Source of the DNA: Thermoplasmatota archaeon
GTDB taxonomy: Archaea; Thermoplasmatota; JASEFT01
Direction: 5' to 3'
Assembly: GCA_030018475.1 (NCBI GenBank)
Contig: JASEFT010000004.1
Coordinates: 1 to 46,559 of the forward strand
DNA: 46,559 nt
Shown: piece after piece, positions 5,594 through 44,770 of the stretch
How positions within the stretch are numbered: position 1 is the stretch's first letter
How the letters are laid out: each line of letters starts with the position of its first letter
Translations under genes and position numbers: made by a program
Notes under the pieces: generated by a model
What the model saw: only the letters and a program-made list of their open reading frames with translations
Database searches by the model: none
Told to the model about the DNA's origin: nothing

Positions 5594-5734
5594 CTAATTT
5601 GTCTTGATCTTCTTCGTTCCGCTAGGTCTCTCTTTATAAAAAATTCTAGATCCGCATTTATCGCACTGTATACCAGGAATGTTTAAATCTATCTCTATAG
5701 GGTTTTTGCAAATAGCGCATTTATATCTATCCAT
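5594..5734 (-). CDS. rpoP: DNA-directed RNA polymerase subunit P (Rpo12)
   Basis: 46-aa ORF below the ORF-track cutoff, translated by hand: MDRYKCAICKNPIEIDLNIPGIQCDKCGSRIFYKERPSGTKKIKTN. Has the CxxC...CxxC zinc ribbon and sits tightly between rpl37ae and pcc1. Confidence 0.8.
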   Translation of the reverse strand: MDRYKCAICKNPIEIDLNIPGIQCDKCGSRIFYKERPSGTKKIKTN

Positions 5735-5736
5735 TT

Positions 5737-5988
5737 TTATTTCCTCTCCTGCTCTTCTTCAACCTTTGCCATAGTTATTGGTGTATAGGCAGCGCCGGCA
5801 AATTTAGTATTGCAATGCCTGCACTTCCAAATGCCACTTGCCAATCTTTTGACTGCAATATAGTTGCAGGAAGGGCATAGATATTTTGAACGTGTTTTTT
5901 GCTCTATATCTTTAACTCGCAGTCTAACGCTGACGCCGTAGCGTGCTCCAAACCTAGCCACAGAACCTACTTTTTTAGCTGCACTCAT
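5737..5988 (-). CDS. rpl37ae: 50S ribosomal protein L37Ae (eL43)
   Basis: FGARYG, CPSC...CRHC zinc ribbon, GAAYTP. Confidence 0.9.
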   Translation of the reverse strand: MSAAKKVGSVARFGARYGVSVRLRVKDIEQKTRSKYLCPSCNYIAVKRLASGIWKCRHCNTKFAGAAYTPITMAKVEEEQERK

Positions 5989-17159: not shown

Positions 17160-17173
17160 TGGACCCGTCGGGA

Positions 17174-17284
17174 ATCTCGATCTCCAGATGAAATACGATT
17201 TATTCTGCACAAAAATGCTTGCGCATTTTTGTGATTCGGATGAGAGCGGAGCTCTCATCCTCTCTCGCATTTCCTTCGGAAATG
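17174..17284 (-). other. tRNA-Ala intron 2 (111 nt, T-loop position 59/60)
   Basis: hBHBh': T-stem TCGGG/CCCGA, central helix UUCG/CGAG, bulges AGC and AUU, inner helix AUUUCC/GGAGAU. The body holds three perfect hairpins: GCATTTCC/GGAAATGC, GGATGAGAGC/GCTCTCATCC and CACAAAAATGC/GCATTTTTGTG. Confidence 0.75.
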
Positions 17285-17306
17285 CTCGAACCCGAGTCCT
17301 CCACAT

Positions 17307-17366
17307 ATCTGGGAAAAGAATGGATTAACCACCGTTTTTCTTTCTTCCCCTGAAAGGTTCCTTTCT
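17307..17366 (-). other. tRNA-Ala intron 1 (60 nt, canonical 37/38 position)
   Basis: hBHBh' layout: anticodon stem, CUUG/CCAG central helix (one mismatch), 3-nt bulges CAA and AUA, inner helix GAAAGG/CUUUUC. Confidence 0.75.
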
Positions 17367-17403
17367 TGCAAGTGTGGCGATCTTCCACTGATCTACGGGC
17401 CCG

Positions 17404-17485
17404 AGCCCTTTCTTTCTCTTTTTCAAAGAGAAAGAAAGCGTTCACGGAAAGAAAGAGAAACTAGGTTATCCTGTAAGGGATAACC
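17404..17485 (+). repeat. three-strand homopurine/homopyrimidine module A (hairpin + mirror-repeat third tract + flanking 8-bp hairpin)
   Basis: AGCCC; Y 17408-17421 CTTTCTTTCTCTTT; loop TTC; R1 17425-17438 AAAGAGAAAGAAAG (perfect complement); linker CGTTCACG; R2 17447-17460 GAAAGAAAGAGAAA (exact reverse of R1); then GGTTATCC-TGTAAG-GGATAACC. Confidence 0.8.
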
Positions 17486-17550
17486 TTAACCATCGTTTGT
17501 TGCTACGCAATCAGTATTCGCAGTTGCATTAACAACCTTCGTATTCTCAA

Positions 17551-17628
17551 GGGTTACAAAGTAACCCTTGCTTCTCTTCTTTTTCCGTCAACGCTTTTTC
17601 TTCTCTTCTCAAGAGAAGAAAAAGGGCT
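17551..17628 (-). repeat. three-strand homopurine/homopyrimidine module B (same architecture as A, inverted orientation)
   Basis: On the plus strand: GGGTTAC-AAA-GTAACCC; Y2 17572-17585 TTCTCTTCTTTTTC; linker CGTCAACG; Y1 17594-17607 CTTTTTCTTCTCTT (exact reverse of Y2); loop CTC; R 17611-17624 AAGAGAAGAAAAAG (perfect complement of Y1); GGCT. Confidence 0.8.
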
Positions 17629-17649
17629 GTAGCTGATAAAGATTTTCTA

Positions 17650-17657
17650 ATATTAAA
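17650..17657 (-). promoter_or_regulatory. TATA-like box TTTAATAT (minus strand), 21 nt upstream of the AGCC that opens module B
   Basis: A/T octamer at archaeal TATA-to-start spacing. The same octamer at similar spacing precedes module C (44063-44070). Confidence 0.3.
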
Positions 17658-17694
17658 TAGGTTTCTAGAAAAATATTTTAGTGGGCCCGATGAG

Positions 17695-17745
17695 ATTTTC
17701 AAGCCGCAACTACGGGTTGAAAATGTAGTGGACGTAGTCCACGGC
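17695..17745 (-). other. tRNA-Ile intron 2 (51 nt, T-loop; exact junction ambiguous within the repeated AAT)
   Basis: TTCGAAT|GCCGTGGACTACGTCCAC...TTGAAAAT|CTCAT. UUCG/UGAA central helix and GCCG/CGGC inner helix with one extra nucleotide (relaxed BHB). Confidence 0.7.
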
Positions 17746-17768
17746 ATTCGAACTCATGACCTCCCGGT

Positions 17769-17916
17769 CACTCACAGCCCTTTCTTACTAAGGAGTGGGA
17801 AGCACTCCTTACGTTCCTAGGAATTGCCTTAGGCAATTCCTGCGGATCTTTTTCACAAAAAGAAAGAAACTGACTGGCGTTTTTCTTTTCTCTTCCAGAG
17901 AAAAGAAAAAGGCTGC
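17769..17916 (-). other. tRNA-Ile intron 1 (148 nt, 37/38)
   Basis: hBHBh': CCCGG/CCGGG stem, CUGA/UGAG central helix (one G.G mismatch), bulges UAG and UGA, inner helix CAGCC/GGCUG. The body holds the AGCC-TTTTTCTTTTCTC-loop-GAGAAAAGAAAAA hairpin plus AGGAATTGCC/GGCAATTCCT and TAAGGAGTG/CACTCCTTA hairpins. Confidence 0.8.
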
Positions 17917-17975
17917 TATCAGCCGGGCGCTCCAACCATGCTAAGCTACGGGCCCACGTTAGCAGGTATGTATGC

Positions 17976-31997: not shown

Positions 31998-32384
31998 ACT
32001 CCACAATGTGCGCAAGCACGATGGGGGAATCCCAAGTGCCTATACTTAATGTATAGGCTGTTCCCTTGTCCAAAAAACAAGGGGAGTAAGGGCTGGGTAA
32101 GACGGGTGCCAGCCGCCGCGGTAATACCCGCAGCCCAAGTGGCGATCACTTTTATTTGGTCTAAAACGTCCGTAGCTGGTTCAGTAAATTTTTGGGTAAA
32201 TCGAAATGCTTAACATTTCGAATTCCGAGAAGACTGCTGGACTTGAGACAGAGTGGGGTCAGAAGTACTCCTGGGGTAGGGGTGAAATCCTGTAATCCTA
32301 GGAGGACTACCAGTGGCGAAGGCGTCTGACTAAAGCTGCTCTGACAGTGAGGGACGAAGCCCTGGGGCGCAAACGGGATTAGAT

Positions 32385-32483
32385 AGAAGCCTTTCTTTCT
32401 CTTTTCGGAAAAGAGAAAGAAACTCTTCAGGGAAAGAGAAAAGAAAATTTCTTTTTTCTTTTCCCCTGAAGGACTTCCTAGAT
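32385..32483 (+). other. 16S rRNA mini-intron (99 nt) in the 790 loop, with a canonical BHB
   Basis: GGGATTAGAT|A...AT|ACCCCGG. Outer helix CGGG/CCCG, central helix UUAG/CUAG, bulges AUA and AUA, inner helix GAAGCC/GG(A)CUUC. Splicing restores GGATTAGATACCCCGGTAGTCC. Confidence 0.8.
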
Positions 32484-32582
32484 ACCCCGGTAGTCCAGGG
32501 TGTAAACGCTGCAGACTTGGTGCAGGGGAAGCTACGAGCTTGCCCTGTGCCGGAGAGAAGTTGTTAAGTCTGCTACCTGGGG

Positions 32583-43905: not shown

Positions 43906-44062
43906 ATGGTATCATTGACAAGAGCACAAAACGGTATAACTAAAAATCTTGGGAGTACTGTTTATTTAACTTAGCTTTTCTTTACAAAACTCATTTCTCG
44001 CGTCTCTAGACTTAGTAGAATCTATCTTTAGTCTGGATAAAAAACGATAATTTTCTAATCAT

Positions 44063-44070
44063 TTTAATAT
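44063..44070 (+). promoter_or_regulatory. TATA-like box TTTAATAT, 23 nt upstream of the AGCC that opens module C
   Basis: Same octamer and similar spacing as upstream of module B. Confidence 0.3.
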
Positions 44071-44093
44071 CCATACTTGGATTAAATGAAAGA

Positions 44094-44152
44094 AGCCCTT
44101 TTCTTTTTCTTCCAAAGAAAAAGAAAAGTCCTTCAGGGGAAAAGAAAAAGAA
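44094..44152 (+). repeat. three-strand homopurine/homopyrimidine module C
   Basis: AGCC; C98+Y 44099-44111 TTTTCTTTTTCTT; loop CCA; R1 44115-44128 AAGAAAAAGAAAAG (perfect complement); linker TCCTTCAGGG; R2 44139-44152 GAAAAGAAAAAGAA (exact reverse of R1). Confidence 0.8.
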
Positions 44153-44188
44153 TAGAACAATATGCGAACTTGATTAGAAGGATATTAA

Positions 44189-44770
44189 ATGAAATATCTA
44201 ATTATTACATGTGGAGTAATAGGTACGGGCAAGAGTACAATTGCAAAAGCTCTTGCAAAGAGGACAGGTATGAAAGTCATATCCTCAGATTATGTCAGAA
44301 AGAGCATTGTTGCAGGTATTCCACCTGAAGCTCATAGATATGAAAAATTTGGTGAAGGCATATACTCGAAAGAATTCTCAGAAAGAACTTATCTAAAAAT
44401 GCTGGAGCTTGCAAAAGTGCAATTAACCAGAAACAAATCTGTTATTTTAGATGGCGCTTTTAGCAAAAGATGGCAACGCGTTAAAGCTTATGAGACTGCA
44501 AAAGAAACTGATGCAAGATTCTTGTGCGTTGAGTTCATATGCAGTAAAGAAGAGCTGATAAAGAGGCTTGAAAAAAGAGCTCTGAGCAAAAGAGGCGTTT
44601 CAAACGGAAGGATTGAGATACTAGCTGAGCATGAAGCTAGCTTTGAAAAGGTATCGGAATTTTCGGAAGAGCTGCACATTATAATTGATACCACATGTAG
44701 GAAAGAAGATTGCGTACAATCTGTTTTGGCTAGGCTGAACGAAAAGTTAAAGTTGAAACATTGCTATTAA
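44189..44770 (+). CDS. P-loop kinase (AAA_33/gluconate-kinase-like fold), substrate unknown
   Basis: Walker A GVIGTGKST near the N-terminus; 193 aa. Confidence 0.55.
   Translation: MKYLIITCGVIGTGKSTIAKALAKRTGMKVISSDYVRKSIVAGIPPEAHRYEKFGEGIYSKEFSERTYLKMLELAKVQLTRNKSVILDGAFSKRWQRVKAYETAKETDARFLCVEFICSKEELIKRLEKRALSKRGVSNGRIEILAEHEASFEKVSEFSEELHIIIDTTCRKEDCVQSVLARLNEKLKLKHCY

Follow-up and report, generated by a model that had tools for sequence, protein, structure and literature searches.

The spacer between the genes for tRNA-Ile and tRNA-Ala on contig JASEFT010000004.1 of the Thermoplasmatota archaeon assembly GCA_030018475.1 (positions 1 to 46,559, in the following referred to as the window) contains two modules, A and B, in which a pyrimidine arm, a loop, a complementary purine arm (R1), a linker, and a second purine tract (R2) follow one another, with R2 being R1 read backwards. 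Such a mirror tract raises the questions of what structure the modules adopt, on which strand they act, and whether they are confined to this locus. Modules A and B are opposite-orientation copies of a short module that is non-coding and occurs widely among uncultured archaea, and the reading favoured here, with a probability of roughly 0.4, is that the module acts on one strand, probably as RNA, as a three-stranded structural cap or insulator at RNA borders.

Mirror tracts in register on three strands

Re-checking of the sequence confirmed the first-pass annotation of the spacer, i.e., two modules of the same architecture in opposite orientation, with coordinates and sequence relations exact to the base. 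The spacer length of 279 nt (17403–17681) was likewise confirmed, as was the identity of the flanking genes, whose products, spliced in silico, were called tRNA-Ile(GAT) and tRNA-Ala(TGC). Module A (17403–17460, plus strand, opposite to both flanking tRNAs) starts with the 5′ strand of a short helix termed the clamp (GAGC, 17403–17406), followed by C (17407), the pyrimidine arm (17408–17421), the loop TTC (17422–17424), R1 (17425–17438), the linker CGTTCACG (17439–17446), and the mirror tract R2 (17447–17460); it reads CTTTCTTTCTCTTT-TTC-AAAGAGAAAGAAAG-CGTTCACG-GAAAGAAAGAGAAA. The pyrimidine arm is the reverse complement of R1, R2 is the exact reverse of R1, and linker positions 2–5 (GUUC) pair with GAGC. 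Module B (17572–17629, minus strand, shared with the tRNAs) comprises the clamp CAGC (17629–17626), C (17625), the pyrimidine arm (17624–17611), the loop GAG (17610–17608), R1 (17607–17594), the linker CGTTGACG (17593–17586), and R2 (17585–17572), and reads CTTTTTCTTCTCTT-GAG-AAGAGAAGAAAAAG-CGTTGACG-GAAAAAGAAGAGAA on this strand. On the plus strand, its linker is CGTCAACG and its loop CTC, and Y2 (17572–17585) is the exact reverse of Y1 (17594–17607), of which R (17611–17624) is the reverse complement. R2 equals R1 read backwards at 14/14 positions in each module, and R1, the 8-nt spacer, and R2 (14 nt each for the tracts) form a mirror repeat as defined for H-DNA (at least 10 bp, short spacer).

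Low-complexity coincidence in an AT-rich genome could be proposed for such tracts, given that the window (GC content ~38%) holds 156 tracts of 10 nt or more that consist of purines or of pyrimidines throughout and that the commonest tract of the family, AAAAGAAAA, is its own mirror image and hence uninformative on the mirror rule. Yet the pattern AGCC-Y14-N3-R14 occurred five times in the window vs 0.00 times in 100 dinucleotide shuffles, and three of these five hairpins (A, B, and module C at 44092–44152) carry a mirror tract that is perfect at 14/14 positions; a purine tract of equal composition would have one given order with odds of ~1/1001 (A), 1/1001 (B), and 1/364 (C). Together with the 137 independent loci and the register, permutation, and re-pairing controls given below, this leaves coincidence a negligible probability.

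Further copies were searched for with the linker and its purine flanks as query (RRRRRRAAAGCGTTSACGGAAARRRRRR; chance expectation ~0.1 matches). The census is consequently biased to the CGTTSACG linker class, other classes having been found only as neighbours in the retrieved loci. The linker pattern matched 137 loci, 71 in stretches of species-representative genomes and 66 in metagenome stretches, and there were 0 matches among 2.9 million viral contigs. The consensus of the family is (C/G)AACC-C-TTTTCTTTT-loop-AAAAGAAAAG-CGTT(G/C)ACG-GAAAAGAAAA. As variable stem and loop lengths in low-complexity arms make MAFFT alignment unreliable, register-anchored scripts were used, and 116 unique copies were aligned from the linker outward.

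In these copies, 1139 of 1178 aligned positions were Watson–Crick paired between the pyrimidine arm and R1 (14/14 in A, B, and C), and R2 was R1 backwards at 1102 of the 1139 positions (again 14/14 in A, B, and C). Canonical triples, 847 T-A.A and 250 C-G.G, make up 93% of the aligned positions. Identity was 0.83 at shift 0 and at most 0.565 at shifts of 1–4 nt, P(G|G) was 0.74 in register vs at most 0.30 at other shifts, and a direct-repeat model reached an identity of at most 0.38. At the outer 6 nt per side, which are not fixed by the query, a perfect mirror was found in 59 of 73 copies, with 415/438 matches vs 323 ± 6.6 after random left/right re-pairing; mirror identity at these positions was 96.8% vs 81.6% in the best direct-repeat register. 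Asymmetric tract variants all follow the mirror rule (AAGAGAAAAG..GAAAAGAGAA; GAAAGAAAAG..GAAAAGAAAG; AAAGAAAAAG..GAAAAAGAAA; AAGAAAAAAG..GAAAAAAGAA). For other perfect pyrimidine/purine hairpins in the same loci, which have unrelated linkers and had not been picked by the query, a perfect mirror within 3–12 nt was present in 28 of 246 strand readings vs 2.5 expected from permuted tracts, with nine direct repeats. Two outcomes that would have spoken against the first-pass annotation were not observed: mirror tracts are not as rare as in shuffled tracts (28 vs 2.5 among the unrelated-linker hairpins), and homologous loci do not lose the mirror register, three-strand co-variation being kept in ~116 unique copies from many archaeal phyla. 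Its impression that the register is selected agrees with the chance, permutation, re-pairing, and register controls, all of which argue against coincidence. To our knowledge, no polymerase copies a strand backwards, and two-fold-symmetric proteins would select direct, not mirror, repeats.

The clamp helix is a structural feature new to this analysis. In the folds of the family, linker positions 2–5 pair with the 4 nt located 5′ of the C(C) ahead of the pyrimidine arm, and the variable position of this helix was Watson–Crick in 98 of 106 cases (67 C-G, 31 G-C; 8 non-Watson–Crick). The commonest clamps are CAAC/GUUG (58 copies) and GAAC/GUUC (27), and the rule also holds in other linker classes (GCAC/GUGC, CAGC/GCUG, AAAC/GUUU, AGAC/GUCU, AGAG/CUCU, CAAG/CUUG) as well as in the window modules C and D (GAAG/CUUC); the clamps of A (GAGC/GUUC) and B (CAGC/GUUG) have one G.U each. 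It had been suggested that the linker closes as a 2-bp CG/CG turn. Complementarity between linker positions 1-8, 2-7, and 3-6 was indeed found (CG..CG vs CC..GG; U-A vs C-G), but the main conserved role of the linker is the 4-bp clamp with the 5′ flank, and position 2 accordingly has two possible partners, the flank and position 7. The module order is clamp helix, C.C mismatch (or CC/YC), R/Y helix of 8–14 bp, loop of ~3 nt, 3-nt connector, and mirror tract.

Distribution, placement, and strand

All but two of the 71 genome matches are archaeal, and nearly all family loci stem from uncultured archaea. Matches were found in ANME-1/Methanophagales, Syntrophoarchaeum, Methanosarcinales, Methanomicrobiales, metagenome-assembled genomes (MAGs) of Halobacteriota, and Altiarchaeota, and, on the DPANN side, in Micr-, Iain-, Woese-, Nano-, Parv-, and Aenigmarchaeota; the window itself belongs to the Thermoplasmatota, the thermosome having 99% identity to its counterpart in a 'Candidatus Thermoplasmatota' MAG. 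The module is multi-copy, with several loci per MAG, and near-identical module sequences occur in DPANN, Altiarchaeota, and Halobacteriota. The two bacterial matches (L024 and L053; Chitinophagales and Acidobacteriota) are without a pyrimidine arm; L024 at least resembles coding sequence, and L053 still has a perfect 10-nt mirror (GAAGGGAAAG..GAAAGGGAAG). Searches with Rfam 15 gave only small-subunit rRNA at gathering score in the window, only microRNA noise at E-values up to 10, and tRNA matches only on six family loci. Full-text literature searches yielded neither the sequence nor any account of an element of this type in the introns or flanks of archaeal tRNAs, and a 2026 review of RNA triple helices treats archaea in passing only, with no link to such an element.

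Out of 120 unique copies classified by placement, 20 lie in tRNA introns, 18 at most 70 nt past a tRNA 3′ end (often 0–5 nt), two just upstream of a tRNA, and 23 at most 8 nt after the stop codon of an open reading frame (ORF), with 57 remaining unclassified. Intron copies begin 1–3 nt after the 5′ splice site, in anticodon-loop and T-loop introns alike. The ORFs preceding modules are varied (archease, TrkH, Rce1-like, Sec61-beta, and others). In five ANME-1/Methanosarcinales species (L009, L045, L052, L064/L077, L104), the module follows the archease stop codon by 1–5 nt; archease is the cofactor of the tRNA-splicing ligase RtcB, and this adjacency could be a coincidence or a regulatory link to splicing. 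Copies are retained at orthologous sites across species, namely in the archease 3′ untranslated region (UTR; five species), a tRNA-Tyr intron, and a tRNA-Gly trailer. A general role as terminator was considered and dropped, as oligo-T follows R2 in only about one quarter to one third of the copies in any context.

For strand relations, modules within 400 nt of tRNAs called by intron-tolerant ARAGORN were evaluated. The module lies on the tRNA's own strand in 41 of 42 such relations, including 14 intron copies that are all sense. With respect to ORFs, 19 modules were on the same and 13 on the opposite strand, a count that is noisy since purine tracts create spurious stop-to-stop ORFs. Mismatches read on the strand carrying pyrimidine arm, loop, R1, linker, and R2 in this order were of G.U type rather than A.C type at ratios of 18:7 in the R/Y helix and 8:0 in the clamp (26:7 in total). 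Strand bias and mismatch asymmetry together show that selection works on the sense strand, be it RNA or single-stranded non-template DNA, rather than on the duplex or the antisense strand. The first-pass annotation had considered the polarity correct for a triplex in either reading: the three-strand register holds, but the symmetry does not, because 41 of 42 relations are on the tRNA strand and the mismatches (26:7) favour the purine-motif reading. A second case of the rare orientation seen in module A is L044 (reverse complement, ~5670–5850), where Y2-linker-Y1-loop-R adjoins the first base of tRNA-Glu(CUC).

Structural reading and its alternatives

In the modules, two purine tracts pair like with like in antiparallel orientation, and one of them is also Watson–Crick paired, which is by definition the purine (reverse-Hoogsteen) triplex motif. 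Mirror co-variation and this definition make a three-stranded fold on the sense strand the best structural reading, and from the like-with-like co-variation of the sequences we infer that an intramolecular triplex is formed. The module would most likely be RNA, with hairpin and clamp folding first. The second purine tract would then fold back antiparallel along R1 and place G against G and A against A by reverse-Hoogsteen pairing, yielding a compact three-stranded rod that resembles a polypurine reverse-Hoogsteen (PPRH) hairpin carrying its pyrimidine target in cis. The last linker bases would compete with the clamp, and docking would free 4–5 nt beside the processing site. A role as cap or insulator is proposed because the copies border RNA that is cut or trimmed, i.e., tRNA introns, trailers, leaders, and spacers, an rRNA intron, and 3′ UTRs. 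At the borders of removed RNA, such end-caps may resist nucleases and, consisting of purine-only and pyrimidine-only strands, would not mispair with the tRNA; the pair in the window would bracket a spacer RNA of ~230 nt between tRNA-Ile and tRNA-Ala. PPRH hairpins have polypurine mirror-repeat arms that are reverse-Hoogsteen bonded and bind a polypyrimidine strand by Watson–Crick pairs (PMC8525393). Their geometry is that of R1-linker-R2 plus pyrimidine arm, except that the module has its target in cis, whereas PPRHs are man-made, have a loop of five T, address a target in trans, and are DNA only (PMC8525393).

Several points weigh against the cap or insulator reading. Triplexes of the purine motif that consist solely of RNA are regarded as weak, with A.A-U triples being poor, and DNA provides the best-documented cases. 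A strand that leaves the 3′ end of a helix and folds back runs in the shallow groove, like loop 3 of an H-type pseudoknot. Once the clamp has formed, a connector of 3 nt (1 nt in the ccttgg class) can hardly place R2 in the major groove; the first loop has 3 nt and the second 8–10 nt, but four bases of the latter are clamp-paired and thus not free (limits used for intrastrand triplex loops are 1–6 nt in ITxF and 0–10 nt in Hoyne). Reasoning from this topology, a closed clamp and R2 in the major groove are hardly compatible, so that clamp and triplex may alternate and two-state switching is possible; for the complementary strand, with its Y-Y-R order, these lengths would fit a deep-groove crossing. 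In the minimal T-loop introns of L039, L048, and L054, R2 is almost directly followed by GGGUUG returning to the helix base, which is topologically incompatible with a docked R2. Module A has the inverted orientation relative to its tRNAs, about 40% of the R/Y hairpins, including D and E of the window, are without a mirror tract, and the cap or insulator function is deduced from position. Patchy taxonomy and near-identical sequence across phyla fit a mobile element as well.

A stronger version of the cap reading, which we regard as rather unlikely, holds that A and B together cap a stable spacer RNA at either end, that the family represents long (8–14 triples) intramolecular triple helices used domain-wide in archaeal RNA processing, and that RNase P leaves a locked 3′ end as in MALAT1/mascRNA. 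Triple helices found in nature rarely exceed a handful of consecutive triples, and the best-known examples that do are the elements for nuclear expression (ENEs) of MALAT1 and PAN. In the ENE/MALAT1 triple helix, U-rich strands clamp a 3′ A-rich tract, and RNase P makes the 3′ end beside a tRNA-like structure. Module A read on the tRNA strand is arranged similarly (U-rich, 3 nt, clamp, U-rich, GAA, A-rich tract, GGCUC, tRNA-Ala RNase P site) and ends 5 nt before the RNase P site; L044, abutting tRNA-Glu, has the same layout. After cleavage at tRNA-Ala, the new 3′ end would be held in 14 U.A-U/C+.G-C triples, and in this orientation a 3-nt connector over the five-level clamp would suit the deep groove, like loop 1 of an H-type pseudoknot. 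Unlike ENE/MALAT1, however, the family in its usual orientation has two purine strands and one pyrimidine strand, no stem with a U-rich internal loop, and unrelated sequence, and the module has 3–4 C+.G-C triples. The family as a whole is not ENE/MALAT1-like in the sense of two U-rich strands on an A-rich tract, as a Y-Y-R order on the strand of the tRNA is confined to module A and L044.

The same strand order could instead act in DNA, with the non-template strand forming an intrastrand purine-motif triplex when single-stranded (while being transcribed, within an R-loop, or as the template of lagging-strand synthesis), or with R1 and R2 forming H-DNA, and so modulate polymerase passage or genome stability as proposed for TMECO/BoxC of E. 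coli. This is improbable. In its favour, triples of the purine motif have a firm basis in DNA and a poor one in RNA, the purine-rich RNA made from R1 and R2 would promote R-loops, the strand bias is in line with the sense strand being non-template, and G.T is the least harmful DNA mismatch. TMECO, part of the enterobacterial BoxC, is an intrastrand triplex motif of the form CCCTCNCCC-N3-6-GGGNGAGGG-N3-GGGNGAGGG (Holder et al. 2015, PMC4666352; Hoyne & Maher 2000/2002), whose strand order is that of the modules and which is a stable single-stranded DNA triplex in vitro (PMC4666352). TMECO shares with the modules the block order (pyrimidine arm, loop, purine arm, loop, purine tract), the multi-copy non-coding occurrence, and the purine motif, but is G/C-rich with 9-nt blocks and a 3-nt second loop, is found in Proteobacteria, and was studied as single-stranded DNA and tied to genome instability; a clamp helix, a link to tRNA/rRNA processing sites, or a strand link to transcription is not reported in the sections consulted (PMC4666352). 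A recurrent G-rich repeat with adjacent C-tract in Methanomicrobiaceae is also intrastrand triplex-capable and gives an antiparallel DNA triplex (PMC8044849, 2021). It resembles the modules in being archaeal and intergenic and in combining a single-stranded DNA hairpin with an antiparallel purine third strand, but differs in being G-quadruplex-capable, G/C-rich, of strand order R-R-Y, and confined to one methanogen family, and neither a tRNA or intron context nor an analysis of co-variation among three strands was reported (PMC8044849). A polymerase block would, on the other hand, be harmful in tRNA introns and between co-transcribed tRNAs, where many copies sit, and no consistent oligo-T or terminator context follows R2. 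R1, the 8-nt spacer, and R2 do correspond to an H-DNA mirror repeat (perfect over 14 nt), but classical H-DNA is strand-symmetric and needs neither an upstream pyrimidine arm nor a clamp, whereas in the modules both co-vary and strand bias is evident; duplex-level, strand-symmetric H-DNA was therefore rejected (arm and clamp co-vary, 41/42 on the tRNA strand, mismatches 26:7). Comparably improbable is a selfish repeat, REP/MITE-like (repetitive extragenic palindrome or miniature inverted-repeat transposable element) or carried by transposing introns of the bulge-helix-bulge (BHB) type, which would spread horizontally among co-habiting archaea, survive in introns, spacers, and 3′ UTRs, and use the fold for a mobilising enzyme or an RNA intermediate rather than for the host. 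The copy number (five in 46.5 kb of the window, several loci per MAG), the patchy occurrence restricted to uncultured lineages with nearly the same sequence in DPANN, Altiarchaeota, and Halobacteriota, the REPIN-like inverted doublet in the spacer, and the att-like setting of one copy agree with this. In that copy (L079, ~1800–2040), the 3′ end of a tRNA (GAACCTCGTCCCCCGCAAACTTT) is present on both sides of the module in direct orientation, a duplication that looks like an att-type trace of an integration event. Transposition of tRNA introns is documented in Thermoproteales (PMC4033280, citing Fujishima et al. 2010), and the modules resemble such transposed BHB introns in that introns of different tRNAs have related sequence in common, that copies begin right at the 5′ splice site, and that AGCC/AACC can act as BHB h′ strand. 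The modules differ, however, in forming only part of an intron, in occurring also in trailers, leaders, 3′ UTRs, and an rRNA insertion, and in being found in Thermoplasmatota, Halobacteriota, DPANN, and Altiarchaeota instead of Thermoproteales. REP, BIME (bacterial interspersed mosaic element), and BoxC repeats have many similar copies in extragenic, transcribed DNA; the modules are multi-copy, but four of the five window copies lie within stable-RNA genes or spacers and the sequences differ. Recent transposition is further at odds with A, B, and C differing in tract and clamp sequence at perfect register, which suggests long-term structural selection, and with the copies kept at orthologous sites across species. 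No transposase is encoded nearby in the window (no RAYT/IS200-like transposase among 20 window ORFs scanned), and viral contigs gave no matches.

A further possibility is that there is no third-strand contact and that the extra tract serves as a Watson–Crick partner, either at long range to the other module or in a two-hairpin switch with the pyrimidine arm. In the spacer, linker and R2 of B would pair with the complement of R2 and linker of A, and the minimum-free-energy fold of the whole spacer (−100.8 kcal/mol) indeed joins the third tracts of A and B by G.U-rich helices; where the tracts of minimal T-loop introns are self-mirrors, R2-GGGUUG is a possible partner of the pyrimidine arm, and the third tract of the 16S rRNA insertion described below pairs with a subsequent pyrimidine tract. 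Most family members are, however, single modules with no downstream pyrimidine partner (for module C, folding found none within 125 nt), and such pairing requires a direct repeat, whereas asymmetric tracts obey the mirror rule, which makes this explanation very unlikely.

The first-pass annotation knew of no described archaeal element with this design. No paper or Rfam family was found for it, but BoxC/TMECO (PMC4666352) and the Methanomicrobiaceae repeat (PMC8044849) are precedents, and the general kind, repeated intrastrand-triplex-capable motifs in prokaryotic non-coding DNA, is known already. New are the A-rich tracts, the clamp helix, the strand coupling to transcription, the position at tRNA/rRNA processing sites, the spread across phyla, and the clean three-strand co-variation. 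The three strands co-vary in exact register over 8–14 positions in more than 100 independent copies from at least five archaeal phyla, and no comparative evidence of this kind for an archaeal element was found in the literature. The fixed position, at a distance of 1–5 nt to a 5′ splice site, the 3′ end of a tRNA, or a stop codon and on the transcript strand, makes processing a testable question, namely whether switching between triplex and clamp caps, insulates, or times the processing of introns, trailers, and 3′ UTRs. If the module were selfish DNA, it would constitute a new kind of archaeal repeat travelling between phyla. In practical terms, modules and multiple large introns hide tRNA genes from standard finders, and modules also insert into 16S rRNA.

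Further copies and neighbouring genes in the window

Four of the five window hairpins lie within stable-RNA genes or spacers, and the fifth, module C (44092–44152, plus strand), is intergenic. It consists of the clamp GAAG (44092–44095), CC, the pyrimidine arm (44098–44111), the loop CCA, R1 (44115–44128), the linker TCCTTCAGGG (44129–44138), of which CUUC pairs with GAAG, and the perfect mirror R2 (44139–44152). It starts 22 nt past a TATA-like TTTTAATAT (44062–44070) and ends 37 nt ahead of the ATG of an AAA_33/KTI12-like kinase ORF (44189–44770), so that it would be part of an mRNA 5′ leader (44062–44188), a context absent among the tRNA-linked copies. On the minus strand, a TATA-like TTTAATAT (17650–17657) precedes the clamp of module B by 21 nt and is a possible promoter of its own for the spacer and tRNA-Ala. 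Modules B and C thus both begin 21–22 nt past a TTTAATAT-type box, a spacing at which a transcript would be expected to start.

Module E (17880–17916, minus strand) occupies the first 37 nt at the 5′ end of the tRNA-Ile intron and reads GCAGCC-TTTTTCTTTTCTCT-GGA-AGAGAAAAGAAAAA; its hairpin is 81% identical to that of B, and a mirror tract is absent. Its AGCC pairs with GGCU at the intron 3′ end (BHB h′ helix), and the BHB of this intron has the H helix CUGA/UGAG (3/4 pairs) and the bulges UA|G and UG|A. Module D is contained in an insertion of 99 nt (32386–32484, plus strand) that interrupts the universally conserved 790 loop of the 16S rRNA gene (GGATTAGATA|...|CCCCGGTAGTCC, 32380–32484) with TAGATA direct repeats on both sides. 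It reads GAAG-CC-TTTCTTTCTCTTTT-CGG-AAAAGAGAAAGAAA-CT-CTTC-AGGG, and another R/Y hairpin comes next; the third tract of D lacks the mirror relation and, on folding, pairs with the downstream pyrimidine tract. The fold of the insertion is a three-way junction that includes both R/Y hairpins, and the insertion is presumably removed by splicing as a mini-intron. As the 16S gene exceeds the Rfam model by 143 nt, ~44 nt of extra insertions are located elsewhere in the gene.

Each module is capped on its inner side by a hairpin, as had been annotated, with 9 bp next to A (17463–17486, AGGTTATCC/GGATAACCT) and 10 bp next to B (17548–17570, CAAGGGTTAC/GTAACCCTTG) instead of the 7–8 bp given earlier. 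The spacer centre (17487–17547) has no Rfam match and no recognisable gene, and C/D-box or other small-RNA signals were detected there neither by eye nor by Rfam. The spacer was also considered as an archaeal BHB intron, which is characterised by two 3-nt bulges on opposite strands with a 4-bp helix between them at the ends of the element; AGCCC/GGGCU at the spacer ends pair, but on manual inspection no BHB could be drawn with the flanks, and the candidate was rejected.

Both flanking tRNA genes are on the minus strand and carry two large introns apiece, in the anticodon loop and the T-loop. tRNA-Ile(GAU) (17682–17955) has an anticodon-loop intron of 148 nt (17916–17769) and a T-loop intron of ~51 nt (~17745–17695), and tRNA-Ala(UGC, G3:U70) (17160–17402) has an anticodon-loop intron (17366–17307) and a T-loop intron of ~111 nt. 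ARAGORN in default mode called zero tRNAs in the whole window, thereby missing both genes, and the Rfam tRNA models also miss them; relaxed ARAGORN recovers tRNA-Ile(GAT) with the 148-nt anticodon-loop intron. The anticodon-loop intron of tRNA-Ala (17307–17366, minus strand) has a degenerate purine-CCTTTCAGG-purine layout (AGAAAGGAA-CCTTTCAGG-GGAAGAAAGAAAAA), which is 82% complementary to R1-linker-R2 of module A and is missing the pyrimidine arm. The tRNA-Ile intron further contains a hairpin, GGAATTGCCT-A-AGGCAATTCC (17819–17841), that resembles GGAATTnnn...nnnAATTC hairpins located directly 3′ of R2 in several Altiarchaeota loci (L026, L050, L056, L067, L071, L132), a likeness that hints at a larger shared unit.

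With respect to related contigs, the nearest MutL relatives (73–53% identity) lie on short contigs without the tRNAs, and the contigs of thermosome relatives end before any module; the contig of the MutL relative with 53% identity (L003) also encodes an Arf/Ras/Roc-type small GTPase (851–1366). A contig of a near-identical strain (L001, Logan SRR23186779, compared with window positions 17594–17960) terminates within module B, and modules appear to break short-read assemblies. In this strain, a few intron positions differ from the window, e.g., in the GGAATT hairpin.

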